Assembly (NCBI GenBank): GCA_030427205.1
Contig: JAUHXC010000011.1
Span: 1 to 44,015 of the forward strand
Origin: a bacterium
GTDB lineage: Bacteria > Myxococcota_A > Bradymonadia > UBA7976 > UBA1532
Length of the DNA stretch: 44,015 bases
Direction: 5' to 3'
Each line of letters opens with the position of its first letter. Position 1 is the first letter of the stretch. Made by a program: the position numbers and the translations under genes. The notes beneath the pieces were generated by a model. That model saw only the letters and a list, made by a program, of their open reading frames with translations. It was not told the origin of the DNA and did not search any database. Shown piece by piece: positions 2,706-34,200 of this stretch.

Positions 2706-3980
2706 TCAGGGGGCGTCTTCGTCGTACGGCGCGGCCTCGGGCTGCGCCGGTATCGGATCGAGCGCGGGCGGGGCATCGGGGGTCGCGGGCGGGGCATCTT
2801 CGGGCGCGGTCGAGGGGTCGCCGGGCGCTGCGGGTGGCTCCGCGGGCGCCGCGGGCGGCGGTTCGGCCCGGTCGACGGCATTACGCAGCTGCTGCAGCGG
2901 GTCGACGGTGCGGGCGCGGAAGGCGGCGCGCAGCACCTCGGCGGACAAGCCGTCGGCCTGCTCGGCGTCGACGTGCGCCCCGTTGCCGGCGGCGGCGATG
3001 GCCCGATGCTGGGGGCGCACGAGGCGGTCGTGCTCGCGGGTGATGCCCCGGCGGCGGCCGTAGCCCGGCGGCGGGGTCGAGAGCATGTAGATCCGGCCGC
3101 CGGCGGCGGCGAAGCGGCGGGCGGTGTCGAGGCAGGGGCCCGCGCCGGGGTCGTCGGCGGCGGCGTCGCTGGTGGTGAGAATCAGCTTGATGGCGCCGGG
3201 TCGCCAGCGGGCCTTCTCCGCGGCGCCGAGGCCGCCGCAGAGCCACTCGGGGCGGTCGTCGTCGACGCCGGTGCTGGTGGCCTCGATGCCGGCGAGGAAG
3301 TCGGCGAGCTCGGCGGCGTCGGCGGTCAGCGGGTGCTGTTCGAGGCGCATGCCGGGGGCCTCGCGGCGGTCGCGGAAGACGATGGCGCCGACCCGGGCGG
3401 TGGGGCTGACGACGCGCAGGGTGTCGACGGTGGCCCGCAGGTTGCGCCGGGTGGCGTCGAGGCCGGCGGCCATGGACGCGGTGCCGTCGATGACGAGCAT
3501 GACGTCGACGGGGCGGGCGGTCAGCGGGTCGAGCTCGCCGAGCACGGCGCGCACGCTCTGGTCGAGTGCGGCGGCGCGTCCGCTGGCCTGCTGCGCCCGC
3601 TGCTCGCTGGTGGCCAGGGCGGCGGTGAGGGCCTCTTTGTCGGCGATGAGGCCGTCGCGCTCGGCGAGCAGGCGGTCGCGATCGGCCTGCAGGGCGGCGA
3701 GGGCCACGCTGGCTTCGCTGGCGGCGCCGCTGGCCCGGCGGGCGGCGGCCTCGGCGATCCGCTTGCGGTCGAGGGCGGCGATACGCGCCGATTCGGCTCG
3801 GGCCCGGGCCTCGGCCTCGGCCACCAGCGAGTCGCGGGCGTCGGTGAGCGAGGTGCGGATGTGCATCACCGCGACGAGGAAGAGCAGCAGCACGCAGCCG
3901 AGCGCGGTGGTCAGGATGTCGGCCAGCGAGGTGCCGAAGACCTCGGCGCCTCGGCGGCCGTCGCGGCGGCGGCGGCTCAT
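2706..3980 (-). CDS. MotB/ExbD/TolR-like single-TM protein (N-terminal Arg-rich cytoplasmic stretch, TM helix SLADILTTALGCVLLLFLV with the conserved Asp) followed by a periplasmic coiled coil, a von Willebrand factor A (vWA) domain (VMLVIDGTASM...) and a Pro/Ala-rich tail.
   Basis: The ORF track gives 2706..4670, but its first 230 aa are an Arg-rich out-of-frame read-through of the upstream gene. The true start is the ATG at 3980 (MSRRRRDG...), forming an ATGA overlap with the upstream stop at 3977-3979. The TM motif AD[IF][LM]T[TA]A resembles E. coli MotB YADFMTAMMAFF (recalled from memory) around the proton-conducting Asp32. The vWA block DGTASM plus downstream hydrophobic strands is typical. 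Confidence 0.7.
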   Translation of the reverse strand: MSRRRRDGRRGAEVFGTSLADILTTALGCVLLLFLVAVMHIRTSLTDARDSLVAEAEARARAESARIAALDRKRIAEAAARRASGAASEASVALAALQADRDRLLAERDGLIADKEALTAALATSEQRAQQASGRAAALDQSVRAVLGELDPLTARPVDVMLVIDGTASMAAGLDATRRNLRATVDTLRVVSPTARVGAIVFRDRREAPGMRLEQHPLTADAAELADFLAGIEATSTGVDDDRPEWLCGGLGAAEKARWRPGAIKLILTTSDAAADDPGAGPCLDTARRFAAAGGRIYMLSTPPPGYGRRRGITREHDRLVRPQHRAIAAAGNGAHVDAEQADGLSAEVLRAAFRARTVDPLQQLRNAVDRAEPPPAAPAEPPAAPGDPSTAPEDAPPATPDAPPALDPIPAQPEAAPYDEDAP

Positions 3981-5173
3981 CGCTCGGGCCCGAAGGGGCC
4001 GTCGTCGCTTTCGAGGTCGCCGTCGCCCATGGTGTAGGGGGTCGAGGTCTCGCCTTCGGGCAGGTCGAGCCGGGTCGAGGGGCCGACGGCGTAGCCCCGG
4101 GTCGGCTGGCGGGGGCGGGCCGGCGCGCCTTCGCGGCGCACGATGAGCGGCTGCTCGCCCTGGCGGCGCAGGGCGCCGAGCTCGTGCTGCAGCCGGGGCA
4201 GCGCGGCGCGGGTCTCGCGGGCGGCCTGCACCAGCTCGGTGACGGCGCCGTCGATGGGCGGCAGGGCTTCGAGGCGGCGGGCGACGGCGGCGAGCGCGGT
4301 GTCGATGGCCTGCATGCTGCGCTCGATGCGGGCGACGGTCTCGGCCTGGCGGTCGAGGGCGGCCTCGGCGGGGGTCTGCTGGGCGAGGCCGGCCAGGTCG
4401 AGGCGCTGCACGTAGCCGGCGCCCAGGTCGCGCTCGATGCGCTCGAGCAGGCGCTTGTCGCGGCCTTCGAGGCCCACTTCGAGCAGCTTGAGCGGCACGA
4501 CGAGCGCCAGGGCGAGCAGGGTGGTGTCGAAGGCGACCGCGAGCCCGGTCACCGCGGGGATGAGCGCGGCGAGGTCGTCGCCGACGCCGGTGATGACCCC
4601 GTCGAAGCTGGCGATGGCCCCGGCCATGCCGACGACGGTGCCCAGGAAGCCCGACAGCGGCAGCAGCCACATGGCGGCGGTGAGCGGGCGGTAGTCGTCC
4701 TCGACCCGGGCGTGGGCCCGGTCGACGGCCTGGGTGGCGGCTTCGAGCAGCTCGTCGCGGGTGGGGCGCTGGCTGCGGAAGTAGCTGAGGACGGCGTAGA
4801 GCACATCACCGGCGAGGGTGTCGCGCAGGCGGGTGAGCACCTCGAGGCGGCCGGGCAGCTCGCTGCGATCGACGGCGCCGTGCCGCAGCTCGCGGCAGGC
4901 GTCGAGGGCCCGGCGCTCGCCGGCGTGCACCACGAGGCGGCGCAGGATGTGGCCCACGCCCCAGAAGAAGAGGCCGACGGTCAGCGGCTGGCTGAAGCCG
5001 CGATCCCAAAGCAGCGTATGCAGCCGGGTCTCGGGGGCGAGCGCGTCGACGGCGAAGAAGAGCCCGGCGGTGCCGGCGACGGCGGCGAGCAGGGGGATGA
5101 AGCGGGTCCAGCCGCCGACGAGGGCGGCGGCGCCGCGGGAGGCGGTGAGTTGGCGGGGGTGGGCGATGTCCAT
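3977..5173 (-). CDS. MotA/TolQ/ExbB proton-channel family protein with 4 TM helices and a ~150-aa C-terminal cytoplasmic coiled-coil tail.
   Basis: Signature LLPLSGFLGTVVGMAGAIASF...AALIPAVTGLAVAFDTTLLALALVVPLKLL matches the MotA/ExbB TM3-TM4 channel motif. The ORF track start is 5233. The ATG at 5173 (MDIAHP) has a GGGAG RBS 6 nt upstream and is preferred. The stop overlaps the downstream start (ATGA). Confidence 0.75.
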   Translation of the reverse strand: MDIAHPRQLTASRGAAALVGGWTRFIPLLAAVAGTAGLFFAVDALAPETRLHTLLWDRGFSQPLTVGLFFWGVGHILRRLVVHAGERRALDACRELRHGAVDRSELPGRLEVLTRLRDTLAGDVLYAVLSYFRSQRPTRDELLEAATQAVDRAHARVEDDYRPLTAAMWLLPLSGFLGTVVGMAGAIASFDGVITGVGDDLAALIPAVTGLAVAFDTTLLALALVVPLKLLEVGLEGRDKRLLERIERDLGAGYVQRLDLAGLAQQTPAEAALDRQAETVARIERSMQAIDTALAAVARRLEALPPIDGAVTELVQAARETRAALPRLQHELGALRRQGEQPLIVRREGAPARPRQPTRGYAVGPSTRLDLPEGETSTPYTMGDGDLESDDGPFGPER

Positions 5174-5247
5174 GGGCGGCTCCCGCGGTGTGGGGTCGCC
5201 CATAGAATCAGCGGCGGGGGCCGATTTGTTCAACCGGCCCGCCGATT

Positions 5248-5420
5248 AGGGCTTGGAAGGAAATTACTCGGACCCGCGAGGGCGTGAGCTCGGCCCCCAG
5301 TCGCCAGCGCCCCCGCAGCCGGCGACGCAGTCGTACCAGAGGTACGGCGAGGAGTCGGCGAGGAGGCAAGCGGCGAATGGGGGTCGAGATCGCGGCCGCA
5401 GCCCGAGTAATTTGCTGACA
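5248..5420. repeat. Imperfect ~23-bp inverted repeat (gggcttgGAAGGAAATTACTCGG ... CCGAGTAATTTGCTGACaagccc; an 11-bp perfect core AAATTACTCGG/CCGAGTAATTT plus a 7-bp outer match) flanking a ~125-bp segment. The arms are locally AT-rich in a 70% GC background. An internal small hairpin CGTACCagaGGTACG is present.
   Basis: Read directly from the sequence. Lies between the stop of the giant LTD gene (5426) and the start of the motA-like gene (5173), both on the minus strand. Confidence 0.6.
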
Positions 5421-5425
5421 AGCCC

Positions 5426-8400
5426 TTACATCGGCTCGCCGCAGAACGCGCCGAACTCGTCATCGACGCAGACGAAGTCGAAGTCGGCGCAGTTGTCGGT
5501 GAAGTTGACCCGGTACTCGCAGGTGGGCTGGCCGTCGTCGCCGACGACGCACTGCCCGTCGCCGCCGTAGAAGGCGACGGTGGTGGGGTCCTGGCAGAAG
5601 GCCGGCGGCGGGTCGAAGCAGAAGACGTCGGCGCAGGGGTCGCGCACGATGTCGAGGTCGATGGCCGCCTCGGCGGAGTAGCCGTTCTCGAGCCCGTCGC
5701 TGTCGCAATAGGCCCAGGTGCGCCCGCCGTCGACGCTGAAGCGGAAGGCCATGTCGTAGGCCCCGCTCACCGGCTGGCCGGGGTCGAACGAGGCGGTGTA
5801 CTCGTCGTAGGCGGGCGTGCCGCGGTCGTCGCCGTTGTAGCCGGGGGTGTCGATGGCCGGGGTCCAGCTCCAGTCGAGGTTGCCGGCGGGGTCCGATCCG
5901 CGCGGCCCGTAGCCGCCCTCGGCGACGAGCAGGCCGTCGAGGTCGACGAGCGGGGAGCGGTCGGTGATGCCGGCCTCGAAGACCAGGCCGGTGACTTCGA
6001 GCGGCGGGTTGAAGCCGCCGGCCTGCCACTCGGTGGGCACGACGGGGAAGTTGAAGCGGCAGTCGTCGACGGTGACGTCGACCTCGGGGCACTGCGGGTT
6101 GGGCAGGCCGGGGGTGCCGAGGTGGTCGAGCGCGGCGTCGCCGCCGGGGTCGGCGAAGTAGACCACCTCGCCGAGGCACCAGTTGATGCCCTCGTCGTTG
6201 GCGTCGAAGTCGTAGGCGTCGGGGTCGAGGCTGATCGAGGCCGCCGAGGCGTCGGGGAAGGTGAAGCCGTCGTCGTAGCCGAAGGTGTCGACGAGCGCCG
6301 CGCCGCAGTACAGGTTGAGCCGGCCGGCGGCGTTGGGCAGGGCGAAGTCGAAGGTCTGCGCGACCTGCAGCCCGCCGTTGACTTCGGGGTCGGCGGAGCG
6401 GGCGAGCAGCGCGACGCCGCCGGCGGCGAGGTTGATCGTCAGCCGGGTCGAGGCGCCGCCTTCGAGGCCCATGGTGCAGCCGTCGAGCACGAGGTCGCGG
6501 TCGGTGGTATTGGTCAGCTCGATCCACTCGGCCTGGTTCTCGGCGAGCACGCCCTGGGGGTCGTAGAGCATCTCGCTGAAGACCACGTCGCCCTCGCCGG
6601 CGATGGCGTCGGGCGATACGCAGCGCCCCGCGGCGCAGGCCTGTCCGATCGCGCCGCAGTCGACGAGGTCGAAGTCGTAATCACAGGTCGCGGCGTCGTC
6701 GACGATGTTGCACGTGCCGAGCGCGTGGTAGGCGGCGACGGTGGTGGCGTCGAGGCACTCGTCTTCGGGCACGTCGACGCACGGGTTGGGGTCGCAGGCC
6801 CCGAGGTTGTCGCCGCACGAGGGGTTGGGCTGCCCGGGGGTGCCGAAGTGCGGCGGGTCGCCGTCGAAGTAGGCCCCGGTGGCGTTGCACCACGCCTCGC
6901 CGAGGTCGTTGAGCTCGGCGTCGACGAAGTCGGGGTCGAGCTGGTAGGCCACCGCGGGGATGTTGCCCGGGAAGCCGGCGAGCGCGTAGTCGACCGCGTC
7001 GATGGTGGTCTGCCCGCAGCGCAGCTCGACGATGTCGCCGCCGTTGTTGAGGCTGAAGTTGAAGATGCCGTCGGGCGCGATGCCGCCGTTGGCCGCCGGG
7101 TTGAGCGAGCGGGCGAAGAGCAGGATCGCGTCGGCGGGCACGAGCAGGTCGCCCACCGCGAGCCCGTTGGCGCGGTCGCGCACCTCGCACCCGGCGAGGT
7201 CGAGCAGCTCGCCGCTGACGTTGATCAGCTCGAACCACTCGCCGGCCTGCTCGTCGATCTCACCTTCGGTATTGCGCTGGATCTCGTTGACGACGATGTC
7301 GCCCGGCTCGGGGGCCCGGGCGCCGGCGGCGTCGCAGAGGCCGTCGACGCAGCCGGCGGCCCCGCAGTCTTCGCGGATCTCTTCGGGCGGGATGCACACC
7401 GGCTCGCCGTCGACCGCTTCGCACGCGGTGACCCCGTAGCTGACGGCGACGTCGCCCTCGCAGAAGGCGGCGGGCGCGTCGGCGCAGGGGTTGGGGTCGC
7501 AGGGGTCGCCCGCCGGGCACTCGCGGTTGGGCAGCCGCGGGGTGCCGAGGTGCTCGGGGTCGAAGATGTAGGGGTCTTCGGCGAGGCACCAGTTGCGGCC
7601 GAGGTCGTTCTGCTGGGCGTCGAGCCGGTTGCTCGAGAGGTTGATCGAGGCCGCCCGCGCGTCGGGGAAGGCGCCGCCGTCGTCGTAGTTGACGGTGTCG
7701 ATCAGCGCGCCGTCGCAGCGCAGGTTGACCTCGTCGCCGCCGTTGGTCAGCGAGAAGTCGAAGGTGCCGTCGACCTCTTGCAGGCCGCCGTTGAGGATCG
7801 GGTCGTCGACCCGGGCGAAGAGCGCGTAGCCCCGCGCGGCGATCTCGACGCCGGCGATGGGGGTGCCGCTCGCCGAGTCGGCGATCTCGCAGCCGTCGAG
7901 GCTGAGCGGGGTGTCGGTGGTGTTGTACAGCTCGATCCACTCGGCGAAGTTCTCGTCGAGCCCGTTGTGCGGGTCGTAGAGGATCTCGCTGACGATGACC
8001 TCGCCCGGCGCGGGGAGCCGCGCCCCGCCGCAGGCGCCGTTGACGCACTGCGCGTCGACGCAGTCTTCGCGCTGCTCGGGGTAGTCGCAGGTGGCGAGGC
8101 CGATGGCGTCGACGCCGCAGACGCCCACGTCGGGGTAGGTCACGGCGGTGTTGCCGTCGCAGACGCTGACCGGCGGGTTCACGCAGGGGTTGGGCGCGCA
8201 GGGGTTGGCCGGCGGGTCGACCACCAGCCGCCCGGCGTCTTCGACCCGGTAGCCGTCCGACGAGCCGGCGTCGCCGCTGTCGCAGACCTGCCAGGTGCGG
8301 CCGCCGTCGACGCTGAAGCGGAAGGCGAGGTCGTACTCGCCGGGGATCGGCATGACCACGTCGGCGCGGTACTCGTCGTTATTGGGCTCGCCGAGCCCGC

Positions 8401-11400
8401 CGGCGCCGTCGTAGTCGGCGTTGGGGAAGCCGGGGGTCCAGACCCACTCGGGGTTGTCCATGGGCAGCGAGCCGTCGGGGCCGTAGCCCACCGCGGCCAG
8501 GATGAGCCCGGTGCCGTCGTTGAGCGGGCTGAGGTCGGTGATGCCCTCTTCGTAGATCCGGCCGTAGACGATCTGCACGGTCTCGAACTCGGCCTGCAGC
8601 TCGCTGGGGAACTGCAGCCGGCAGAAGTCGACCTCGCTGTCGCACGGCGGGTTGGGCGCGCCGGGCGAGCCCCACTGCGCCGGGTCGACCGAGTAGCGGG
8701 TGCGCGAGGGGCACCAGCTGGCCGGGTCGTCGTTGAGCGCGGGGTCGACGGCGCCGTCGCGCAGCTGGATCGAGAACCCGCGCACCGGCGGGAAGCCGCC
8801 GCGCTCGTCGTAGGTCACCGTGTCGACGATGATGCCGCCGCACGAGACGGTGAGGCTGTCGTCGGTATTGTTGAGGCCGAAGTCGAAGACGCCGCGCACG
8901 TTCTCCAGGCCGCCGTTGACCGCCGGGTCGGCGCTGCGGGCGAAGACGGCGTACTCGCCGACCTCGATCTCGACGTCGTCGGCCGGGCTCTCGTTGTTGG
9001 CGTCGGCGAAGACGCAGGTGCGCATCGACAGCGGCGCGTCGCTGGCGTTGTACAGCTCGAAGTACTCGGCGGTGTTGTCTTCGAGGCCGTCGTGCGGGTC
9101 GTAGAGGATCTCGGTGATGACCAGATCGCCGGGCAGCGGGTCGCGCACCTCGCCGCGCACGCAGGCCCCGTCGGCGCAGCCGAGCGGGCAGGCCGTGATC
9201 TCTTCGGCGTACTCGCAGACCGGCAGCCCGCCTTCGTCGGCGCAGGCGCCGACGGCGGCGTAGGCCACCTCGGTGTCGGCGTCGCGGCACTCGGACGGCG
9301 GCGGCTCGTCGCACGGGTTGGGCAGGCAGGGGTCGGCCGGGTCGCCGACGACGACGTGGCCGGCGTCGGCGGGCTGGTAGCCGTTGATCGAGCCCGGCTC
9401 GCGGTCGCAGAAGGCGTAGCTGCGGCCGTCGTCGGCGCTGAAGCGCCAGGCGACGTCGTAGCGGCCGGGCGGCAGGTCGGCGAGGGTCGCGCGGTAGGTG
9501 TCGGCGTTGGCGGCGTCGTTCTCCGGGTCGCCCTGGCCGACCATCCAGACCCAGGTGCGGTCCTGGGTGGGGTCGCTGCCCGCCGGGCCGTAGCCCACGC
9601 CGCCGCGCAGCCGCACGTCGGCGTCGACGCCGCGGCTGCGGTCGGTGATGCCGGCGGCGACGAGCAGCGCGGTGCTCTCGACGTCTTCGCCGAGCGCGAC
9701 GTTGGCCTCGTCGGGGCTGAGCAGGGTGCAGATCGTCAGCGTGGGGCAGCTCGGGTTGGGCCCGCCGGGCGTGCCGTGGTGGTCGCCGCCGGGCGCGTCG
9801 AAGTAGACCGGCAGGGTGCGGCACCAGTTGGCGCCGATGTCGTTGGTGAACGCGCCGGTCTGGTCGGGGTCGAGGGAGACGCTGTAGGCGGTCGCCGCGG
9901 GGAAGTTGCCGCCGACGTCGTAGGCCACCGCGTCGATCTCGACGCCATCGCAGGTCAGCGCGATGCGGTCGCCCTCGTTGCCCAGGCCGAAGTCGAAGGT
10001 GCCCTGGGCCTGCAGCCCGCCGTTGGCCGCCGGGTCGCCGTTGCGGGCGAGCAGCACGTAGCCGCCGGGCGCGACGTTGATCGCGCCGAGGGCCGAGGTA
10101 TTGCCGGCGTCGTCGCCGATGGTGCACCCGTCGAGGCCCACCTCGCGGTCGCTGGCGTTGTACAGCTCGATCCACTCGCCGTCGGCGTCGGCGAGGTCGC
10201 CGGTGGCGTCGTAGAGGAACTCGGTGATCACCGCCTCGCCCACCGCGGGCGGCGCGGCGGGCACGAAGCACTCGCCGTCGATGCAGCGGGCGCCGGGCGG
10301 GCATTCGAGCCGGTCTTCGGGCCAATTGCACTGCGCCTGACCGTCGACCGCCTCGCAGACGCCGGGGTCGCGGGGGCTGATGATGGTGACGCCGTCGTCG
10401 GCGCAGCGCGGCGCGGGCGGCGGCGGGCAGACGAAGCCGTCGCACAGGTCGCCGCCGACGGGGATGGCCTCGAGCTGGCCGGCGTTGCGCGGCTGGTAGC
10501 CGTCCTCCGATCCGGCGCCGAGGTCGCAGTAGGTCCAGGTCTCGCCGCGGTCGAGGCTGACCCGCCACGCGTAGTCGTAATCACCCGGCGCGGGCACGGT
10601 CAGCTCGGCGACGTACTCGTCGTTGTCGGGCTCGCCGCGGGCGGCGCCGTCCCACTCGGGGTTGCCGGCGCCGGCGACCCACTGCCAGTCGGCGTTGCCC
10701 GCCGGGTCGGAGCCGTCGGGGCCATGGCCCGCCTCGGCGATCAGCCCGGGGATGAAGTCGACCTCGGGCGTGTCATCGGTCCAGGTGGCTTCGTAGAGCA
10801 CGCCGAAGACCTCGAAGGTGGTGCCTTCTTCGGCGCGCACCGCCTCGGGGAACTGCAGCCGGCAGTAGTCGATGCTCGGCGGCGGGCAGGCGGGGTTGGC
10901 CGCGCCGGGCGTGCCGCGGTGGGCGCCGGCTTCGCCCGGCTCGCCGAAGTAGACGTCGCCGTCGGCGGCCGGGCACCAGCCGGGCCCGTCGTCGTTGGCG
11001 CCGGCGTCGCGCACCGACGGGTCGAGGCTCAGCGAGGCGCCCGAGACCGGCACGAAGCCGTTCTGGGTGTAGTCGACCTCGTCGACGTCGAGGCCGTTGC
11101 AGCGGATGCCGAACAGGTCGCCGTCGTTGCCGAGGCGGAATTCGAAGGTGGCGGCGACGTCGACGCCGCCGTTGACCTCGCGGTCGGCGCTGTGGCCGAG
11201 CACGATGCGCCCGCCGGCGGGGATGAGCCCGCCCGCGAGCACCTCGACGTTGCCGTCGTCGTAGACCTCGCAGCCGCCCAGATAGCGCGGGCCGTCGGCG
11301 AGGTTGAGCAGCTCGACCCACTCGGCGTCGCCGTCGGAGAGCGGGTCGACGGCGTCGTAGAGGATCTCGGTGATGATCACTTCGCCTTCGCCCGGGTTGG

Positions 11401-12559
11401 GGGCGAGGTCGACGCAGGCGCCCTGCTCGCAGCGGCCGCCGGCGGCGGCGCAGTCCTGGCGGCTCTCTTCGTCGTGGGTGCACTGCGCTTCGCCGTCGAC
11501 GGCTTCGCAGGCGCCGGCGGGGGCGTAGGTCACCGCGTCGTCGCCCTCACAGGCGGCCGGCGGCGCCTCGGCGCAGGGGTCGTCGTCGCAGGCGCCGGCC
11601 AGCGCGGTCAGGGTGCCGGTCTGCTCGTCCTGGAAGCCGTTCTCCGAGCCGTCGAGGTCGCAGCGCAGCCAGCTCGCCCCGCCGTCGAGGCTGAAGCGGT
11701 AGCTCAGCGCGTAGACCCCGGGGGCCGGCGCGTCGACGGTGGCGAGGTACTGGTCGAAGCCGGGGGCGCCGGCCTCTTCGGCGCTCCAGGCGGGGTCGGC
11801 CTCGGCGCGGGCCCACATGGGGGCGTCGGCGCCTTCGGCCATCCAGCCGGCTTCGGCGACGAGGTCGAGGTCGGCGTCGACGCCGTCGGTCAGGTCGGTC
11901 AGGCCGGCCTCGAAGACGCGGCCGGCGAGGGTCACCGGGCTGCCGGCGAAGACCTCGATCTCCGCCGGGCCGGCGAAGATGCAGGCGTCGGCGACGACGT
12001 CGGCCACGCAGCCGCCATCCTGGCAGGTCTGGCGGGCCGGGCAGGCCTGCGCGCTGCCCTCGTAGCGGCACTCGGCGCTGCCGTCGACCACCTCGCAGGT
12101 GCCGTCGTCGCCGAATGTGACCACCTCGCCGTTCTCATTGCACGCGGGGCCCGGCGGGCTGTCGCAGACCACGTCGGCGCAGAGGTCGACGTCGGCGACA
12201 CAGGTATTGTTGTCGAGGTCGCAGGTCTCGCCGTCGTCGCACTCGGCGTCGTCGGTGCAGCAGCCTTCGATCGGCTCGACGACGCACTCGCCCTCGACGC
12301 AGCGGCCCTCGCCGCAGACGGCGTCGACGGCGCATTGCACGTCTTCGGTGCAGGGCGGCGGCCCGACGTCGGGTTCGGGGCCGGGGTCCATGTCCGGCTC
12401 GGGTCCGGGGGTGACGTCGGGCTCGGGCTCCGGCGTACCGTCGGTCTCCATGTCGACGACCGGGCCGGTATCGGCCGCGGTCCCATCGCCGTCGTCGCAG
12501 CCGGCGGCGACCATCATCAATCCGATGGTCGCCAGGGCCACCCACGCTCTGCGCTGCAT
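5426..12559 (-). CDS. Giant (2377 aa) surface lipoprotein with ~6 tandem modules. Each module is a Cys-rich segment (CxxNPC...C...C), a lamin-tail domain (LTD; ITEILYDP.G.D..EWIELYN) and a conserved ~120-aa beta-rich domain (AGYGPDGSDP...DEY.A.L..P.PG.YD.AFRFS.DGG.TW..CD).
   Basis: Lipoprotein signal MQRRAWVALATIGLMMVAAGC (lipobox) starts at the ATG at 12559, with an AGGGGG RBS 5 nt upstream. The ORF track's upstream extension to 12646 is less likely. The LTD motif repeats about 6 times. The long plus-strand ORF 6122..12628 is an antisense artefact. Confidence 0.85.
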   Translation of the reverse strand: MQRRAWVALATIGLMMVAAGCDDGDGTAADTGPVVDMETDGTPEPEPDVTPGPEPDMDPGPEPDVGPPPCTEDVQCAVDAVCGEGRCVEGECVVEPIEGCCTDDAECDDGETCDLDNNTCVADVDLCADVVCDSPPGPACNENGEVVTFGDDGTCEVVDGSAECRYEGSAQACPARQTCQDGGCVADVVADACIFAGPAEIEVFAGSPVTLAGRVFEAGLTDLTDGVDADLDLVAEAGWMAEGADAPMWARAEADPAWSAEEAGAPGFDQYLATVDAPAPGVYALSYRFSLDGGASWLRCDLDGSENGFQDEQTGTLTALAGACDDDPCAEAPPAACEGDDAVTYAPAGACEAVDGEAQCTHDEESRQDCAAAGGRCEQGACVDLAPNPGEGEVIITEILYDAVDPLSDGDAEWVELLNLADGPRYLGGCEVYDDGNVEVLAGGLIPAGGRIVLGHSADREVNGGVDVAATFEFRLGNDGDLFGIRCNGLDVDEVDYTQNGFVPVSGASLSLDPSVRDAGANDDGPGWCPAADGDVYFGEPGEAGAHRGTPGAANPACPPPSIDYCRLQFPEAVRAEEGTTFEVFGVLYEATWTDDTPEVDFIPGLIAEAGHGPDGSDPAGNADWQWVAGAGNPEWDGAARGEPDNDEYVAELTVPAPGDYDYAWRVSLDRGETWTYCDLGAGSEDGYQPRNAGQLEAIPVGGDLCDGFVCPPPPAPRCADDGVTIISPRDPGVCEAVDGQAQCNWPEDRLECPPGARCIDGECFVPAAPPAVGEAVITEFLYDATGDLADADGEWIELYNASDREVGLDGCTIGDDAGNTSALGAINVAPGGYVLLARNGDPAANGGLQAQGTFDFGLGNEGDRIALTCDGVEIDAVAYDVGGNFPAATAYSVSLDPDQTGAFTNDIGANWCRTLPVYFDAPGGDHHGTPGGPNPSCPTLTICTLLSPDEANVALGEDVESTALLVAAGITDRSRGVDADVRLRGGVGYGPAGSDPTQDRTWVWMVGQGDPENDAANADTYRATLADLPPGRYDVAWRFSADDGRSYAFCDREPGSINGYQPADAGHVVVGDPADPCLPNPCDEPPPSECRDADTEVAYAAVGACADEGGLPVCEYAEEITACPLGCADGACVRGEVRDPLPGDLVITEILYDPHDGLEDNTAEYFELYNASDAPLSMRTCVFADANNESPADDVEIEVGEYAVFARSADPAVNGGLENVRGVFDFGLNNTDDSLTVSCGGIIVDTVTYDERGGFPPVRGFSIQLRDGAVDPALNDDPASWCPSRTRYSVDPAQWGSPGAPNPPCDSEVDFCRLQFPSELQAEFETVQIVYGRIYEEGITDLSPLNDGTGLILAAVGYGPDGSLPMDNPEWVWTPGFPNADYDGAGGLGEPNNDEYRADVVMPIPGEYDLAFRFSVDGGRTWQVCDSGDAGSSDGYRVEDAGRLVVDPPANPCAPNPCVNPPVSVCDGNTAVTYPDVGVCGVDAIGLATCDYPEQREDCVDAQCVNGACGGARLPAPGEVIVSEILYDPHNGLDENFAEWIELYNTTDTPLSLDGCEIADSASGTPIAGVEIAARGYALFARVDDPILNGGLQEVDGTFDFSLTNGGDEVNLRCDGALIDTVNYDDGGAFPDARAASINLSSNRLDAQQNDLGRNWCLAEDPYIFDPEHLGTPRLPNRECPAGDPCDPNPCADAPAAFCEGDVAVSYGVTACEAVDGEPVCIPPEEIREDCGAAGCVDGLCDAAGARAPEPGDIVVNEIQRNTEGEIDEQAGEWFELINVSGELLDLAGCEVRDRANGLAVGDLLVPADAILLFARSLNPAANGGIAPDGIFNFSLNNGGDIVELRCGQTTIDAVDYALAGFPGNIPAVAYQLDPDFVDAELNDLGEAWCNATGAYFDGDPPHFGTPGQPNPSCGDNLGACDPNPCVDVPEDECLDATTVAAYHALGTCNIVDDAATCDYDFDLVDCGAIGQACAAGRCVSPDAIAGEGDVVFSEMLYDPQGVLAENQAEWIELTNTTDRDLVLDGCTMGLEGGASTRLTINLAAGGVALLARSADPEVNGGLQVAQTFDFALPNAAGRLNLYCGAALVDTFGYDDGFTFPDASAASISLDPDAYDFDANDEGINWCLGEVVYFADPGGDAALDHLGTPGLPNPQCPEVDVTVDDCRFNFPVVPTEWQAGGFNPPLEVTGLVFEAGITDRSPLVDLDGLLVAEGGYGPRGSDPAGNLDWSWTPAIDTPGYNGDDRGTPAYDEYTASFDPGQPVSGAYDMAFRFSVDGGRTWAYCDSDGLENGYSAEAAIDLDIVRDPCADVFCFDPPPAFCQDPTTVAFYGGDGQCVVGDDGQPTCEYRVNFTDNCADFDFVCVDDEFGAFCGEPM

Positions 12560-12697
12560 CCGTCCCCCTCGTTCGCGTCTCGGTGGTTCGCGTCGTATTG
12601 GTCGATTCACGCGCGGATGATGTGGTGACGGCGCGATGCGAGTCAAACGACGGGTCGGTGACGGACGCGAGGGCGCGCGGCGCCGCGCCGAACGGGG

Positions 12698-13999
12698 TCA
12701 GAGCTTCTCGTAGTCGGCCGGCTCGTCGGCCGGCGCCGGGCGCTCGACGGGGCGCGCGTCCCGGGGTCTTACCGGGCGCCTCGGGCGGGGTCGCACCGGG
12801 CGCTCGGCGGGCGGGCGGGCAGCGGGCGTCGTCGTCTTGCGCGGGCGCAGGGGGCGGGCGGCGTCGGGCTTCGCATCGGGCGCCGCTGCGTCGACGGGCG
12901 CGGGCGCCGCGTCGGGCGCGGCGGCGTCGGGTACGGCCGCGTCGGGCGCGGCGGCGGCGGGCTGGGCGGCGGGCTGCACCGCGGCGGTCAACGGGTCCGC
13001 GGGCGGCGGCGCGGTCGTCGCCGGCGCGCCGTCGCGCAGCAGCAGGAAGACGACGACGATCGCCAACGCCGCCACCGCGGCGATCCAGGGCCACGGCGTC
13101 GGGCGGGCGGGCGGCGGCTCGAGCGGCGCGTCGATCGCCGGCCGCGCGCTGGGCGGCGGCGGGCCGTCCATGCGCGGCAGCGGGCCGGTGCTGACCATGG
13201 TGTCCGACATCGGCCGCCCGCTGGGGGTGAGCCCGATCGAGACCGCGCGCTCGATCGGACCGAGCACCGCGACCGCCGAGGGCGGGCGCTGGCCGGGCGA
13301 GCGACGGCAGAGCCCGTCGAGCACCTCGAGCAGCGGCAGCGGCACGCCGGGCAGGGGCCGATGGGCGGCCTCGGTGGGCGACAGGCCGCCGAGCAGCGCC
13401 CGGCCGATCACGCCCAGCGCGTACAGATCGGTGCGCGCCTCGACCGGCGCGGCGTCACGCTGCTCGGGCGCGGCCCAGGGGCTCGTGCCGTAGGCGAAGG
13501 GGGTCTCGGCCAGCCCGACGCCCGCGAGCCGCACGTAGTCGGCGCGGCCGGTCGTCTGCTGCAGCAGGATGCATTCGGGTCGCAGGCCGCCGTGAAAGAG
13601 GCCGCGTCCGTGGGCTTCGGCGAGCACCCGCGTGAGCTGGCGCAGGATGTCGGCGACCCGGTCGGGCGGCTGGGCCTGGCCCATCAGCGCGCTGAGCGGC
13701 TCGCCTTCGACGCGGCTCTCGACGAGATAGAGCCCCGTCTCGCCCGCGCCGGCGTCGAGCACCGGCACCACCGCGGGGTGGTCGAAGCCGACGACCCGCT
13801 GCAGGGTGCGCTTGAGGCGCATGGCCTCGGCGGTGCCGCCCGGCGCCTGATGCACGATCACCCGGCGCCCGGTGGGCAGATACACCGCCTCGTGCGATCC
13901 ATCGGCCCTGCGGTCGCCGAGTCGATAGCGACCGTCGAGCGTCACCCCGCCGAAGTCGGCGGTCTCGCGTCCTCTGTCCACGGGGGCAGCACACCGCAA
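12698..13999 (-). CDS. Membrane-anchored pseudokinase. It has a Ser/Thr protein-kinase-like fold with degenerate catalytic motifs (VIVHQ instead of VAIK; HGGLRPECILL instead of HRDLKPENIL; LAGVGLAE instead of DFG; APE and D.YALG retained). A TM helix (WPWIAAVAALAIVVVFLLL) and a Pro/Ala/Arg-rich tail follow.
   Basis: Kinase subdomain order recognisable, but the catalytic Asp, the DFG Asp and the VAIK Lys are all substituted. Confidence 0.65.
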   Translation of the reverse strand: MRCAAPVDRGRETADFGGVTLDGRYRLGDRRADGSHEAVYLPTGRRVIVHQAPGGTAEAMRLKRTLQRVVGFDHPAVVPVLDAGAGETGLYLVESRVEGEPLSALMGQAQPPDRVADILRQLTRVLAEAHGRGLFHGGLRPECILLQQTTGRADYVRLAGVGLAETPFAYGTSPWAAPEQRDAAPVEARTDLYALGVIGRALLGGLSPTEAAHRPLPGVPLPLLEVLDGLCRRSPGQRPPSAVAVLGPIERAVSIGLTPSGRPMSDTMVSTGPLPRMDGPPPPSARPAIDAPLEPPPARPTPWPWIAAVAALAIVVVFLLLRDGAPATTAPPPADPLTAAVQPAAQPAAAAPDAAVPDAAAPDAAPAPVDAAAPDAKPDAARPLRPRKTTTPAARPPAERPVRPRPRRPVRPRDARPVERPAPADEPADYEKL

Positions 14000-28074: not shown

Positions 28075-28281
28075 CGCCGGCGCGCGTGGTGCGCCCGCGA
28101 TGCCCATCGACACCGGGTCGACCGGCGCAGCGCGAGGCACATGGAGCACCTTCCCTTTTTGCCGCTGGCCGCCCATGGTATATGCTGCCGTCGAGCCCGT
28201 CCGGGGCCTCGATCCCGACGACTCTGAAACCGCTCACCCGACGGTCGATGCGCCGCTCCGAAATGGCGCGGAGCGTCGGCC

Positions 28282-31200
28282 ATGACCCGCTCGGATCGCA
28301 TGCCCACACCCCGCGATACGATGACCCTGCGACTCGGTGAGCCGTCGCGGATCGATCCGCCCGACGCGCGCTTCTGGGTGCAGCACTGCGCGCAGCTGCA
28401 GCGGCGGGCGGCGGGCATGCGGGCGTCGGTCGAGCAGGCGCGGCTCCACGGGCAGCGGGCGTATGTGCTCGACGAGATGCTCGATGACCGCGCGGCGGCC
28501 GAAGAGGCGTGGAAGGCGGCGCTCGTGGCCCAGCCGGGTTATCTGCCCGCGCTGCTCGCCCTGCGCGATCGGGCCCTGGAGAGCGACGCCCGCAGCCTCG
28601 CCGAGACCCTGGCCGACGTGCACCTGCCGGCGCTGGCCGACAGCGAAGACGTCGACCGGCGGGACATCGCCGAGCTCGCGGCCTTCTTCGGGCTGATCTG
28701 GCTCTTCCGCTGGCCCGACGCCGACCGCGCCGCCCACGCGCTGCTGCGGCTCGAGGCGGTGGGCGATCCGCTGGGGCTGGCCGAGCGGCTGCTGCACCTG
28801 TGCCTCGACGGCGCCGGGCAGGTGACCCGGTGGCGGGCGCGCGCCGAGCGACTCGAAGGGCCCGAGCGCGCCGCGCTGCTCGCCGAGCTCGGCCGGCACC
28901 TCGTCGACGACCCCGACGTGGCCGCCGAGGGCTGGCAGCTGCTCGCCGAGGCCGCCGGGGCCGACCCTGTCGCCGGCTGGTATCGCGTCGAGCAGGCGCT
29001 GGTCATGGGCGAACCCAGCGCGTTGGCCCGGGCGCTCGAGACCCTCGCGGGCCTCTGCGAAGGGGTCGGGGCGGCCATCCTGCGATTCCTCGCCGCCGAG
29101 ATCTGGGAGCTGGTGCTGGGCCAGGTCGACAAGGCCGAAGCGCTCTACGCGCAGGTCACCGGCGGCGGCCTGCGGGCGGCCATCGCGCTCAAGCAGATCG
29201 TCAGCGACGCCCGCCAGTTCTCCGACGACCCGCTCGGCATGTCGGCCAGCCTGGCCGAGCAGGCCGACAGCATCGGCGACGCGCGCCTCGAGGCGGTGCT
29301 CTACCTGCGCGCGGCCCAGCTCGCCGCGGTGGCCAACGACAGCGCGAGGGCGCGCGACGCGGCCGGCGCGGCGCTCGAGCGCTGGCCGGAGGACGACCGC
29401 GCGCGCCATCTGGTCGAACGCATCGTCTGGCAGGCCGCCGAGTGGCACGACCTGCGGGCCCTCATCAACCGCGCCGCCGGCGGCGACATCGCCCGGCTGC
29501 TGCGGGCGGCCATCCTCGAGCACGCCGTGCAGGAGCCGGCCAGCGCCCTCGGCGCGCTCGGATCGGCGACCAGCGAGGCCCCCGAGCTGCTGCACCTGCG
29601 CACGCGGCAGCGGCTCTCGCAGCACCTCGTGGCCGGCGACGACCTGCGCGAAGCCGAGGCCCGGGTGCGGGCGTGGCAATACGAGGCCAACCTGCTCGAC
29701 GCCAGCGACCGACGGGCCGAGCTGTACCTGCGCATCGCCCGCTTCTATCTGGCCCATACGGCGCAGCACGAGAAGGCGCTGACCTACCTCTTCTGGGCCC
29801 TCGATCGCGACCCGAAGAACCTCACCGTGCTGCGCATCATCGAGCACTGCTGCCGCCAGACCGGCCGCCAAGGTCCGCTGGTGAAGGCGCTCGACCAGAC
29901 CGTCGAGCTGCTCGACCGCCCCGCCGACCGCTTCCCGCTGCGCCGTGAGCTGGCCGAGATCCAGGCCGCCGCGGGCGCGCCGACCGATACCCTCGTCGAC
30001 CTCTACCGGGCCGCGCTCGCCGAAGAGCCGACCGACGCCAGCACCCAGGCCGACCTCGAGCGGCTCTATCGCCACGCCCGGCGCCACGACGACCTCAAGG
30101 GCCTCTACGAGCAGATGCTGCGCAGCGCCGACGGCCCCGAGGCGCGGGCCTCGGTCGCGGTGCGCTTCGGCCCGCTGCTCGTCGAGCAGTTCGACGACGC
30201 GGTGGCCGCGCTGCGGCTCTACGACCGGGTCATGCCCGATACCCCCGACGGCCCGCTGCGCTCGCGGCTGGAGATGCTGCAGACCGAAGCCGCCGCCGCC
30301 GGTGGGCTCTCCGGCAGCCTGCCGGCGCTCAACACCGTCGAGATCGAAGCCCTCGAGCGCTCCTCGATGGACTTCGACTTCGGCGAGGCCGACATCGACG
30401 AGCTGCTGACGGTGGTCTCCGACCCCCGGGCCGAGTCCGATCCGGGCGAGATCGCGCCGCCGCCGCTGCCGCCGCTGCTGCCGATGGCGCCCACCGAGGT
30501 CGACAGCAAGATCCGCAGCCCGCTGCCCACCGACGAGGTCCGCGCCGCCGACGCCGTGCGGCCGGCCGATCGACCCTCGGGGCGCACCGGCCTGCTCGAC
30601 TCGGGCCGGGCCGCGGTGCCGCCGCCGCTCGACGTCGACGACGAGATCGAGTTCTTCGAATTCGAGGTGGACGAAGACGACGCCGAGCTGAACGGCTCGG
30701 TCGAGCTCTCGCCCGAAGACCTCGCCGAGGCCGGCCCGCCGCCGCCGGCGCCCATCACCGACCGCACGACCGGCTTCCTCGGCGCCGAGCGCGCCGGCGA
30801 GGGCAAGCGCGACCGCAGCCGGGCGGTCATCGCCCGCAAGCTGCGCCGCAGCCGCAACAAGCAGCCCACCGACGAGTTCGCCGACTTCGGCGAGCCGTCG
30901 CTGGTCGAAGCGGTCGAGATGTACGGCGCCGCCGAAGACTTCGATACCCGGCTGCGGGCCGTCGCCGAGCTGGCCCGGCGCTACGAGGCCGCCGGCCGAC
31001 CGCTCGAAGCCATCCGCGCGTGGCGCACCGTGCTCGGCTTCCGGGCCGGTGACGGCGAGGCCATCCGCCACCTCGAGCAGCTCTACCGCAGCACCGAAGA
31101 CTGGCGCGGGCTGGTGGAGATATTGGCCGGCGAGGCCACCCGCACCGGCGACCGGGCCCGGCGGCAGGCGCTGCTCTTGGAGGTCGCCCGGCTCGAATGG

Positions 31201-34200
31201 CGGGCGCTGGAAGACGCCGGGGCCGCGGTCAACCACTTCCTCGAAGCCCTCGACCTGGGCGTCGTCGACCGCGAGACCATCGCCGAGCTCGCCGGCGCGG
31301 TGCGCGCGGTCAAGCGCTGGCCGGCCTACGTCGACGCGCTGGCCCGGGCCGGCCTCGACGACCCGGCGCACATGAGCCCCGAGGGCGCCATCGACCTCGG
31401 CCGGGTCCACCTCTACGAGCTCAGCGACCCGGCGCGGGCGGTGCCCTACCTCGTCACCGCGGCGCGGGCGCTGCCCGAGCGGGTCGACATCGCCGCCGAC
31501 CTGGCCGAAGCCCGGGCGGGCCTGGGCGAGGTCGACCGGGCGGTGGCGCTCTTGACCCGGGCGATCCAGGCGGCCGTCGACCTCGGCCCCGACGCGCGCA
31601 ACGTGCTGCGCCTGCGCCTCGCCCGACTGTACGAAGAGCACGCCGCCGACAGCCGGGGCGCCTTGCACGTCTACCGCGACGCGCTGGCCGAGGGGCTGTC
31701 CGACCCGGCGGTACTCGACCGCGTCGACCACCTGGCCACCGCCGCCGAGGACTGGCACACCCTCGCCGCCGTGCTCGAGCGCAACCTCGAAGAGGCCCGC
31801 GGCGGCGACCCCGAAGAGGTGCGCCCGATCGCCATCCGCCAGGGCCAGCTGCTGCTCAAGCGCCTCGAGCGCCCGCGAGAGGCCGCCACCGCCTTCGTCG
31901 AAGCCTACGTGCTCGACCCGGCCGACGAAGGCGTCTTCCGGCTCGTCGAGGGCATCCTGCGCAAGCACCCCGACCCGGCGCTGCAGGCGCGGCTCTACGC
32001 CGCCTGGCTCGACGGCGGCGAGCGCAGCCTCAAAGAGCGGCTGACGATGTCGCTGCGGCTGGTGGCGGCCCACGAGGCCGAAGGCCGGCTCGACGCGGCC
32101 GCCGAAGTGCTCGAAGAGCTGCGGGCGCGCATGCCGAACGACGGCGAAGTGCTCGCCGCGCTCGAGCGGGTCTACCAGAAGGCCGGCCGCTGGGACGAGC
32201 TGGTGCAGATGTACCACCAGGCCCTCGACACCACCGGCGACCCCCAGATCCGGGGGCGCCAGCTGCGGCGGCTGGCGCGAGCGTACGAGGTCGGCCTGCG
32301 CGACCTGCCCCGGGCCACCGAGGTCTACCAGACGCTCTTCGCCGAGCAGCCCGACGATACGACCACCCTCAAGGCGCTCGCCCGACTGCTCGAAGGCCAG
32401 AAGCGCTGGGACGAGCTGCTCGAGATCAGCACCCGCGAGCTGGCGCTGACCGACAAGCCGCGGCAGAAGGCGTTCATCCACTTCCGCATGGGCAGCCTGC
32501 ACGAGTCGCAGCTCGGCGATCACGCGGCGGCCGGCGCGGCGTACCACCGCGCGCTGGAGCTCGACCCGCGCTGCTTCCCGGCGCTGCACGGCCTGCGCGA
32601 GCTGGCGGCCAACGCCGGCGACTGGCCGACGGTGGTCGCCCACCTCGGCCGCGAGCTCGAGCTGTGGGACGAACCCAAGGAGCGCGCGGCGGTGCTCTCG
32701 CGCATCGGCGAGATCTACGAGCGCCAGCTCGACGACACCGCCGAGGCCGACGCCCACTACGCCCGGGCGCTCGATACCCACGCCGGCTGCATCCCCGCCG
32801 CCCGGGCCCTCGCCCGCCGCGCGTGGCAGGCCGGCGACTGGGAGGCCGCCGCGCCGCACCTGCAGGTGCTCACCAACCAGAACCTCGACAAGCTGCCCCG
32901 CTCGACGTCGAGCAAGCTCTTCTATCGGCGCGGCGTCGTCGCCCGCAACCTGGGCCGGCAGCTCGAGGCCATCGAGAGCCTCAAGCTCGCGCTGGAGTTC
33001 GACGGCAGCAACGCCGAGGCGCTGCACGCGCTGGTCGAGACCTACGCCGGCCAGGGGACCGACGACGACGGGCTCTCGGCGCTGCTCAAGCAGCTCGCCG
33101 AGAACCGCGCGACCCACGTCGAAGCCGGGCGCATGGACGAGGTGGCCCGCATCGACGTGCTCTCGGGGCTCGCCGCCGAGCATCAGCTGCGCCTCGACGA
33201 CGCGGAGGACGCCTACCGCCGCGCCTGCGAGGCCCGCCCCGACGACCCCGACGTGCTGCGGCCGCTGATCGAGCTGCTGCTCAAGCGCCGCCTGTGGAGC
33301 GACGCCACCGCCGCGCTGCGCACCTTCGCCGACCGCTTCTTCGACGCCGCCCTCGACCGGGCCGACGCGCGGGCCGCCTGGGTCGACGCCACCTTCTGGG
33401 AGGGCGAGATCTGGTCCGACATGGCCGTCGACCCGGCCCGGGCCATCGCCTGCTACGCCGCGGTGCTCGCCGTCGACCCCGACAACCGCGAGGCCCGCTA
33501 CCGCACCGCGCAGTGCCACTACCTGATGGGCGTCTTCGACGAAGCCGCCGAGATCGTCGACGAGCTGCTGACCCACGGCGGGCTGCCCGCCGGCGAGCGG
33601 GCGCGCTACACCTTCTATCGGGGGCGTATCGAGCAGGTCGGGCTGCACGACGAGGGCGCCGCCCGCGCGCTCTACGCCGAGGCGCTGCAGGTCGACCGCC
33701 ACTGCGCCCGGGCGCTCATCGCCCTCGGCCGCAGCCTGCTCGACGCCGACGAGACCGACGGCGTCGTCGACCTGCTGCGCGAGCATCAGGCCCTCATCGA
33801 GGCCCCCGACGACGGCGACCCCGACCTGGCGGCGCTCAAGACCTTCGCCGCCGGCGTCTGGCACCGCCACGGGCAGAGCGACGTGGCCTTGCGCCTGCTC
33901 ACGCCGCTGGCCCAGGGCATCACCGCCGGCGCCCGCGACGCCCGCTTCTGCCTCGCCCGGGTGCACGAGAGCCGCGGCGGGTTCGACGCCGCCGCCGCCC
34001 AGCTCGAGCGGACCCTGGCCGACGACGTCTGCGACATCGCCGCGCTGCGGGCCCTCGCCGGGCTGCGCATGCGCCAGGGCGACGACGAGCGCGCGCTGTG
34101 GGTGCTGTCGGTGCTCGAGCTCTACGGCGCGCTGAACCCCGACGAGCGGGTGACGTGGGGCACCCTGCGCGACCGCAACCGCAAGCAGCGCGACCGCGGG

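Follow-up and report, generated by a model that had tools for sequence, protein, structure and literature searches.

A TolQ/ExbB-type subunit paired with a coiled-coil vWA protein in Myxococcota, a probable divergent variant of a computationally predicted 5:2 motor

Ion-driven motors of the 5:2 type (MotAB, ExbBD, TolQR, GldLM, and ZorAB) are a small set of engines that bacteria have put to widely different uses, and new biology has come to light with each new output module found on them. Here we describe two adjacent genes, called A and B, in a 44,015-nucleotide stretch of DNA from a bacterium of the Bradymonadia (contig JAUHXC010000011.1 of assembly GCA_030427205.1; the whole stretch is referred to as the window). 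A has the TolQ/ExbB/MotA fold and retains both pore threonines of that family, and B combines a single transmembrane (TM) helix carrying an invariant aspartate with a long coiled coil and a vWA domain. The pair probably forms a 5:2 motor powered by the proton motive force (PMF), in which a dimer of B is tipped by vWA heads; we give this reading a probability of about 0.7. An earlier note on this DNA, made from the letters alone, was aware of no experimentally characterized system of this kind. This fits the literature found, where the design appears as a computational prediction only (PMC12204202) and no function or phenotype has been assigned to it.

The assignment of A to the MotA/TolQ/ExbB type, made in that note from a channel motif, was borne out by profile and structure searches. 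A matches the Pfam family MotA_ExbB (PF01618) over residues 123 to 242 with 32.5 bits, above the cutoff of 22.9 (E of 8e-8), and the same domain is carried by nearly all of the 81 clusters of A homologues. The AlphaFold2 (AF2) model, built with 26 homologues, has a predicted local distance difference test score (pLDDT) of 82 and displays the long paired helices typical of the MotA/TolQ/ExbB family. When this model was compared with the PDB using Foldseek, the best 47 matches were all A subunits of 5:2 motors, namely, TolQ, ExbB, ZorA, MotA, or PomA chains. TolQ and ExbB came first in the ranking, followed by ZorA (from rank 23), MotA, and PomA, and the modeled fold of A is nearer to TolQ/ExbB than to MotA. 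The identity of A to the characterized motors in the structural alignments is 18%. An NCBIfam scan gave only noise.

The ion-coupling residues of A were located by aligning it with TolQ of Escherichia coli MG1655; the link between the two proteins comes from Foldseek and hhalign, not from HMMER. In the hhalign alignment, GFLGTVVGM of A pairs with GLFGTVWGI of TolQ and GLAVAFDTTLLALALVVP pairs with GIAEALIATAIGLFAAIP, which places T179 and T218 of A on T145 and T178 of TolQ, respectively. Both threonines and the motifs surrounding them are invariant in 26/26 family members, and they remain so in 7/7 sequences of a set extended to far more distant relatives. D216 is invariant within the clade that has a C-terminal tail, to which the window protein belongs. 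Three hydrophobic segments of A are strong, and residues 61 to 80 fall below the Kyte-Doolittle threshold of 1.6. This weaker segment is probably TM2, giving A a MotA-like topology with four TM helices. The C-terminus of A is cytoplasmic whether three or four helices are counted.

For B, the earlier note had described a positively charged N-terminus followed by one TM helix with a MotB-like aspartate, and this was confirmed. The protein has a single hydrophobic segment (residues 22 to 40), with six Lys/Arg in the first 16 residues versus three in the 20 residues past the TM helix. This excess of positive charge ahead of the helix supports an orientation with the N-terminus inside the cell. D21, which lies within FGTSLADILTTALGCVLLLF, is invariant in 27/27 aligned homologues, together with F15, G16, S18, A20, L23, and the stretch from A26 to F34. 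The motif F-x-x-S-x-x-D in this helix is common to the wider family described below, where the equivalent Asp is invariant in 10/10 members. The TM sequence of B, SLADILTTALGCVLLLFLVAV, lacks the SHLS motif.

The TM helix runs straight on into a stalk of approximately 116 residues, which as a helix would measure an estimated 16 nm. The coiled coil proposed between the TM helix and the vWA domain was recovered in the AF2 model of B (pLDDT 85) as one unbroken helix spanning residues 20 to 150, followed by a vWA fold from 158 to 372; the pLDDT of the helix is 74 to 97 from residue 31 on. One heptad register dominates the stalk of the window protein, with 25 of the 33 a/d positions occupied by hydrophobic residues or Ala, compared with 11 to 21 in the other registers. 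Moreover, the spacing between the TM Asp and the metal ion-dependent adhesion site (MIDAS) Asp is 116, 123, 137, 144, 151, 158, or 165 residues in 48 of 53 homologues of the clade. These seven spacings are all congruent modulo 7, so that 7 of the 11 distinct length classes fall in one phase, with a chance probability of about 1e-3 by a hand estimate that takes the length classes as independent. No single common stalk phase is found in the wider family. Given that the spacing changes by whole heptads and one phase dominates, the register between membrane helix and head is kept, and the stalk behaves as a continuous coiled coil of the kind expected of a mechanically coupled shaft or strut.

At the far end of the stalk, a vWA/MIDAS domain sits where a peptidoglycan-binding or TolR-type domain would be, as had been claimed from the sequence; the AF2 fold, Foldseek, and the conserved MIDAS residues agree on this. 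Foldseek returned 304 PDB matches to the B model at an E value of 0.001 or lower, and the top matches listed are vWA or integrin I-like domains, including the pilus adhesin SpaC, BatB, integrin beta subunits, vWF A3, and Rpn10 (E values of 3e-9 to 2e-6). In a profile search of PDB sequences, the best match of B among solved structures is the I-like domain of integrin beta-3. The alignment pairs PVDvvlviDgtrSM with PVDIYYLMDLSYSM, DrpEW with DAPEG, and vvsDA with FTTDA. It thus sets the MIDAS-type residues D165-x-T167-x-S169 of B on the DLSYS of the beta-3 MIDAS, D242-x-P-E245 on D-A-P-E, and D272 on the Asp of TTD-A. D165, T167, S169, and D272, as well as the D240-x-D242-x-P244-E245 motif, are invariant in the homologue alignment, D240 nearly so. 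The Pfam VWA profile scores below its cutoff on the window protein itself (20.5 and 19.2 bits), and PF00092 is found in most of the homologues. On the basis of these invariant residues and their alignment to integrin beta-3, the head of B is predicted to bind its ligand in a metal-dependent way, as a module of the integrin-beta type. The Pro-rich C-terminus that the earlier note included in the architecture is present in the window protein; it is missing or different in most homologues, and we do not count it as functional.

The two genes are always adjacent. Both are clearly coding, as indicated by G+C contents at third codon positions (0.96 in A and 0.94 in B) far above those at second positions (0.51 and 0.59, respectively), in a window whose overall G+C content is 70 to 79%. 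The ATGA overlap noted earlier is confirmed and holds the stop codon of A and the start codon of B, with both genes on the minus strand, and the two genes are translationally coupled. Homologues of B form 55 clusters, many of them on contigs shared with A homologues. Twenty-four loci were fetched, of which 23 have a relative of the pair; together with the window, this makes 24 related loci, 16 of them from reference genomes, in addition to two low-G+C metagenomic lineages in which A is only 30 to 35% identical. The reference-genome loci comprise 10 from Myxococcales/Myxococcota, one from Bradymonadia, one from Nannocystaceae, and four labeled "bacterium." In 24/24 related loci, A is followed directly downstream by exactly one B gene, usually with a 4-bp overlap, which recurs in the called genes of loci L001, L002, L004, L005, and L007 and most of the others. 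The conserved co-occurrence of the pair, which the earlier note proposed to check by a gene-neighborhood survey, is found throughout this set. None of the 24 loci has a tolR, exbD, or motB gene near the pair, and all-against-all clustering of the open reading frames (ORFs) of the window and the 24 fetched loci gave no third conserved gene.

The clade itself is small, since just 21 proteins were found at an E value of 1e-30 or lower, about 16 of them full length, in an exhaustive HMMER search of 1.84 billion representatives. It has so far been seen in uncultured bacteria only; all the named genome hits are metagenome-assembled genomes of Myxococcota, and the 16 from reference genomes are either Myxococcota or unclassified. 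A tblastn search of 72,556 plasmids with B and one member of the wider family gave no match.

The feature that sets A of this clade apart is its cytoplasmic tail. In the AF2 model, approximately 170 residues follow the last TM helix, beginning with a helical extension, continuing with a pair of helices that are each about 35 residues long (268 to 303 and 309 to 340), and finishing in a disordered acidic end. A profile search of PDB sequences with this region gave coiled-coil matches only. The tail also has a short end motif in which P342 and R347 are invariant across 26 sequences, down to 26% identity. The earlier note had compared this tail to those of the ZorA type. The helical cytoplasmic tail is indeed there; the likeness to ZorA is weak, as the tail is only about 170 residues long, PADLOC gave no match, and Zor effectors are missing.

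A motor with a vWA protein as its B subunit has been put forward before. A computational survey (PMC12204202; Mol Biol Evol 2025;42(6):msaf138, section 8, Fig. 4c-d) described two groups of TM-tethered vWA proteins encoded beside motor genes. In that work, vWA proteins with an Asp-bearing transpore helix (TPH) co-occur tightly with tolQ-like genes in loci without tolR or exbD, and AlphaFold3 (AF3) models with 5:2 stoichiometry were presented for pairs of TolQ-like and TPH-vWA proteins, starting from a seed in Idiomarina loihiensis. Its vWA genes come mostly in heterologous pairs, are concentrated in Proteobacteria and Verrucomicrobia, and have no known phenotype. The concept is thus not new, and the window pair is a divergent variant of a motor type predicted in silico. 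Set beside that family by its description rather than by its sequences, the window clade shares a TolQ/ExbB-type gene next to an Asp-TM vWA protein, the lack of tolR, exbD, and motB, the lack of SHLS, and the conserved threonine ring of the A subunit. It differs in having one vWA gene in 24/24 loci, in its occurrence in Myxococcota, and in the tailed A and the heptad-locked stalk. New here are the locking of the stalk length to whole heptads, the metal site of the integrin-beta type, the conservation of the A tail, and a kinship to operons encoding FHA, PP2C, and kinase proteins.

This kinship was found below the clade, at E values of 1e-28 to 1e-20, where B has full-length matches of 320 to 370 residues with the same layout, in which a basic N-terminus precedes a TM helix containing F-x-x-S-x-x-D and a coiled coil leads on to a vWA domain with D-x-T-G-S-M and P-E-A. 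Alignment of the clade profile with that of the wider family using hhalign gave a probability of 99.96% and an E value of 9.7e-39 over 331 columns, including the TM helix. Judged from these sequence profiles, B is homologous to the wider family over its full length. A profile search with wider-family sequences found more than 280 proteins, many from complete genomes; the named sources include an alphaproteobacterial metagenome-assembled genome (MAG) and a Bryobacterales MAG.

The wider-family gene is part of an operon that recurs in three loci from unrelated sources, both complete genomes and MAGs (L025:275-9547, L026:83-9401, and L028:1-8894), with the order MotA_ExbB, FHA, PP2C, a large FHA protein, the TM-Asp coiled-coil vWA protein, and a Ser/Thr kinase fused to an FGE-sulfatase or WD40 domain. 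Small FHA genes are also found upstream of MotA_ExbB in L025 and L028. A partial operon is present in L027 (2157-7107), where MotA_ExbB and the vWA gene are neighbors in divergent orientation and a kinase gene is close by. The MotA_ExbB proteins of these operons (266 to 273 residues) share the core motifs of A in the window and have no tail. The window clade resembles these operons in the full-length homology of B and the common core motifs of A, and differs from them in having a tailed A and no conserved FHA, PP2C, or kinase neighbors. We take the logic of the operons to resemble that of PpkA (vWA), PppA, and Fha1 in type VI secretion, with the addition of a subunit of a 5:2 motor. A literature search for a system combining FHA, PP2C, vWA, and MotA found nothing. 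The homology of B to these operons suggests that such motors may feed Ser/Thr phospho-signaling in several phyla.

Two distant A-like proteins, P0130 and P0131 (L008:8001-11275 and L030:5001-9103), were considered as further relatives and set aside as a different system, given that their partners have neither a TM Asp nor a vWA domain. They are 25 to 28% identical to A, and their genes overlap by 4 bp with those of single-pass partners of 692 and 882 residues, which have a TM helix with SLFPFLAVL, a long disordered middle rich in Gly, Ser, and Pro, and no Pfam domain. These look like another, uncharacterized type of partner.

Each of the known 5:2 motors shares some features with the window pair and differs from it in others. 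TolQR and ExbBD provide the best structural matches for A, the pore threonines align, and both have a B-type helix with an Asp near its cytoplasmic end after a basic N-terminus. The window B, however, lacks the periplasmic domain of TolR and ExbD, a third subunit of the TolA/TonB type is missing, and the window A has a C-terminal tail and probably an extra N-terminal TM helix. With MotAB and PomAB the pair shares the A5B2 logic, the probable four-helix A, and the adjacent genes, and B would likewise be fixed in the periplasm; it lacks the OmpA-like peptidoglycan-binding domain and the plug, and MotA ranks below TolQ and ExbB in the structural search. No flagellar genes occur near the pair in the window. 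ZorAB also has an A subunit of the MotA family with a helical cytoplasmic tail as putative output, but the window tail is several times shorter, the peptidoglycan-binding domain of ZorB is replaced by vWA, and ZorC, ZorD, and ZorE are missing. GldM, the B-type subunit of GldLM/PorLM, is a dimer whose long, rigid shaft extends into the periplasm from its root in the A pentamer. It serves as a working analogy only; no sequence or Pfam relation to the window pair was found, and the shaft of GldM is made of globular domains rather than a coiled coil with a vWA tip.

From these comparisons we infer an A5B2 stoichiometry, proton flow, relative rotation, dependence on PMF, and the nature of the output. 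Five A subunits would surround two B helices in the inner membrane to form an ion-driven motor, in which D21 of B and the threonine ring of A would provide the proton path and drive the rotation of A5 relative to B2. This subunit logic agrees with that proposed independently in silico (PMC12204202). As to which part moves, we tentatively favor an anchored B, with A and its tail as the output, at somewhat less than even odds. Through metal ions, the vWA heads would bind an acidic residue on some component of the envelope, at about the level of the peptidoglycan or outer membrane, and this binding would fix the rigid B2 stalk as an axle in the way that peptidoglycan binding fixes MotB and ZorB. 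A5 would then turn around B2, with the conserved tail (P342 and R347) as the output. The pair would in this case act as a PMF-powered sensor or transducer of envelope contact, reporting or exploiting in the cytoplasm the engagement of a periplasmic ligand, rather than as a nutrient or secretion motor. A cytoplasmic output is favored because the tail with its terminal motif stays conserved in homologues of as little as 26% identity. Communication with the cytoplasm is also suggested by the wider family, where A has no tail and the operon encodes a receptor Ser/Thr kinase along with FHA and PP2C proteins that are cytoplasmic.

Several observations weigh against this reading, either in its assignment of the pair to the 5:2 motors or in its choice of the moving part. 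The best Foldseek match of A is weak, with an E value of 2.3e-3 and a target TM-score of about 0.6, and HMMER profiles of A (full length or core only) found no solved motor subunit among PDB sequences, giving coiled-coil noise or nothing. Three TM helices are the alternative to the four-helix topology of A. At an E value of 1 or lower, B has no match to Pfam ExbD (PF02472), MotB_plug (PF13677), or OmpA, and its hhalign alignment with E. coli TolR is not significant (42 N-terminal columns, E of 0.046, and probability of 1%), although D21 falls on D23 of TolR in it. The heptad-locked length would be expected of any continuous coiled coil and is silent on which subunit rotates. TolQ and ExbB, the nearest solved relatives of A, deliver force outward. 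Finally, no ligand, tail partner, or other conserved neighbor turned up at the 24 loci.

The outward delivery of force by TolQ and ExbB favors a rival, the model of the 2025 survey, in which A5 is stationary and the coiled coil of B2 rotates or pulls as a driveshaft, as in GldM or ExbD-TonB. The vWA heads would pass torque or tension derived from PMF to a target in the outer membrane or periplasm, where an envelope protein might, for instance, be remodeled, unplugged, or moved. vWA domains of the integrin type bind under load, the metal-site residues of the B head are intact, and a rigid, heptad-locked stalk of about 16 nm is suited to torque or pull across the periplasm. Besides the fact that the closest solved folds of A are outward transducers, an analogous family is covered by published AF3 models and by an argument for this mode of action (PMC12204202). 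However, no conserved outer membrane or periplasmic partner gene is found at the 24 loci, whereas Ton, Tol, Agl-Glt, and Gld all have partners, and the model explains neither the conserved cytoplasmic tail of A nor the FHA, PP2C, and kinase genes of the wider family. It is nearly as likely as the anchored-B reading, at around one chance in three. Should the engine be absent altogether, B would be a static receptor or adhesin anchored in the inner membrane, with A as a degenerate ExbB-like chaperone or scaffold and the Asp in a structural role, with no ion flow. The low similarity of A to characterized motors (18% identity and no HMMER match in the PDB) would agree with this, as would the fact that no energy-dependent phenotype is known. 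It is nonetheless improbable, as D21 of B and T179 and T218 of A are invariant in more than 26 sequences with identities as low as about 21%, as are the GFxGTVxG and AFxTTLLAL motifs, and a buried TM Asp is costly unless functional.

A role in anti-phage defense of the Zorya type, in which the pair would sense envelope perturbation at phage entry and the A tail would signal to effectors, is suggested by the helical tail after the last TM helix and by the presence of ZorA among the structural matches from rank 23. The tail of ZorA reaches residue 729 according to PDB entry titles (delta_435-729), compared with about 170 residues in A. PADLOC found no match for A or B at an E value of 1 or lower, neither to Zorya nor to any other cataloged defense system, and the plasmid collection gave none either. 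B has no peptidoglycan-binding domain, and the neighbors are housekeeping or variable genes, with no conserved ZorC/D/E-like or other effector among them. The absence of a PADLOC match, the short tail, the vWA domain in place of a peptidoglycan-binding domain, and the missing effectors rule out an identity with Zorya, and a Zorya-like function is very unlikely. Least probable of all is that the pair assists in the delivery of, or immunity to, a toxin-like protein with an eCIS_core domain (DUF4157) encoded 80 bp downstream of B. An eCIS_core-Zeta toxin-ART protein is encoded at the same position in L004 and L005, but among the 24 loci such a neighbor occurs only in the window and in these two near-identical loci, i.e., in two lineages, and it is absent in L009, whose B is 82% identical to that of the window.

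A bolder reading, which we consider speculative and clearly less probable than the outward model, would describe the pair as a "powered integrin." A rotary engine driven by protons would read or load the ligand engagement of an integrin-beta-like, metal-dependent head on a phase-locked coiled-coil stalk, and the A tail would be a signaling arm in the cytoplasm. The pair would then be a tailed, self-contained version of a much wider, undescribed apparatus for envelope signaling made of MotA, vWA, FHA, PP2C, and kinase proteins. If true, this would be a new way of coupling PMF to transmembrane signaling. More generally, an integrin-type head on a rigid B stalk would couple PMF directly to a specific periplasmic binding event. 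As a compact two-gene clade with no accessory genes, the pair offers a tractable test of the 2025 prediction of vWA proteins as B subunits, and of which part rotates. It presents clear mutational targets in D21, in T179 and T218, in the MIDAS residues D165, T167, and S169, in P342 and R347, and in the heptads of the stalk. The positions of these elements in the window are listed in Table 1.

Table 1. Features of the A-B gene pair, with positions in the window
Feature	Positions	Strand	Basis or remarks
Gene A, MotA/TolQ/ExbB-type subunit, 398 aa	3977..5173	-	Stop codon 3977-3979
Gene B, single-pass TM-Asp, coiled-coil, vWA protein, 424 aa	2706..3980	-	Stop codon 2706-2708
ATGA overlap, stop of A and start of B	3977..3980	-	Read from sequence
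GGGAG, Shine-Dalgarno-like, 6 nt upstream of the A ATG	5180..5184	-	Read from sequence
TM1, N-terminal hydrophobic helix, A residues 24-45	5039..5104	-	Kyte-Doolittle peak 28-46; AF2 helix 21-45
Weaker hydrophobic helix, A residues 61-80	4934..4993	-	Invariant Q62, T65, L68, G72; AF2 helix 61-97
Channel helix with WLLPLSGFLGTVVGM motif, A residues 166-190	4604..4678	-	T179; motif invariant in 26/26 and 7/7
Last TM helix with GLAVAFDTTLLALALVVPLK motif, A residues 201-229	4487..4573	-	T218; conserved motifs and TolQ hhalign
Cytoplasmic tail, A residues 230-398	3980..4486	-	AF2 secondary structure
Tail-end motif E-x-P-L/I-x-I/V-x-R, A residues 336-347	4133..4168	-	P342 and R347 invariant
Basic cytoplasmic N-terminus MSRRRRDGRRGAEVFG, B residues 1-16	3933..3980	-	6 Lys/Arg in 16
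TM "transpore" helix, B residues 17-40	3861..3932	-	Asp21 codon 3918-3920
Periplasmic coiled-coil stalk, B residues 41-156	3513..3860	-	AF2 and heptad phase
Integrin-beta-I-like vWA domain, B residues 157-372	2865..3512	-	Invariant columns, PDB profile, Foldseek
Pro/Ala-rich low-complexity C-terminal tail, B residues 373-424	2709..2864	-	pLDDT 55-75

The start of A at 5173 is backed by its homologues, which begin with the same Met-Asp. Upstream of it lies an intergenic spacer of about 250 bp (5174-5425). The promoter and terminator scan gave no informative sites and no match to a sigma-70-type promoter. Two terminator-like hairpins were found within the coding sequence of A (4973-5076, minus strand), versus 0.4 expected in shuffles, and these are probably chance matches in G+C-rich coding DNA.

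The rest of the window looks like ordinary chromosome, with genes for a carboxypeptidase, an acyl-CoA ligase-type enzyme, a LysR protein, kinases, and TPR proteins. The eCIS_core protein (HExxH-like) has 550 residues, is encoded at 973-2625 on the same minus strand as the pair, and has no Pfam match in its C-terminal part; in a 65%-identical relative (L004:11370-13955 and L005:6578-9163), its place is taken by the eCIS_core-Zeta toxin-ART protein, a polymorphic toxin. On the other side, directly upstream of A, a protein of 2,406 residues (5426-12646, minus strand) contains six LTD domains (Pfam LTD, 226 bits) that alternate with Cys-rich modules and another repeated module. Its N-terminal hydrophobic segment looks like that of a secreted protein or lipoprotein by eye. 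L009, where B resembles that of the window most closely, likewise encodes a homologue of this protein upstream of its A gene.

Next to it, a protein of 433 residues (12698-13999, minus strand) matches Pkinase only weakly and in part (38.6 bits over profile positions 54 to 198), contains a TM segment and a Pro/Ala-rich C-terminus, and may be a pseudokinase. A family of kinase-like ORFs is found within about 10 kb of the pair in 7 of the 24 loci, approximately five of them unique, a frequency that we roughly estimate to be close to the Myxococcota background. Farther away, a reading frame of 2,258 codons from stop to stop (28228-35004, plus strand) contains TPR repeats, all in the C-terminal half, and its first 1,300 residues or so match no Pfam family. 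In one of the low-G+C loci (L006:32-2174, minus strand), the A-B pair is preceded immediately upstream by two tandem reverse transcriptase (RVT_1) genes, probably mobile or retron-like elements with no relation to it.

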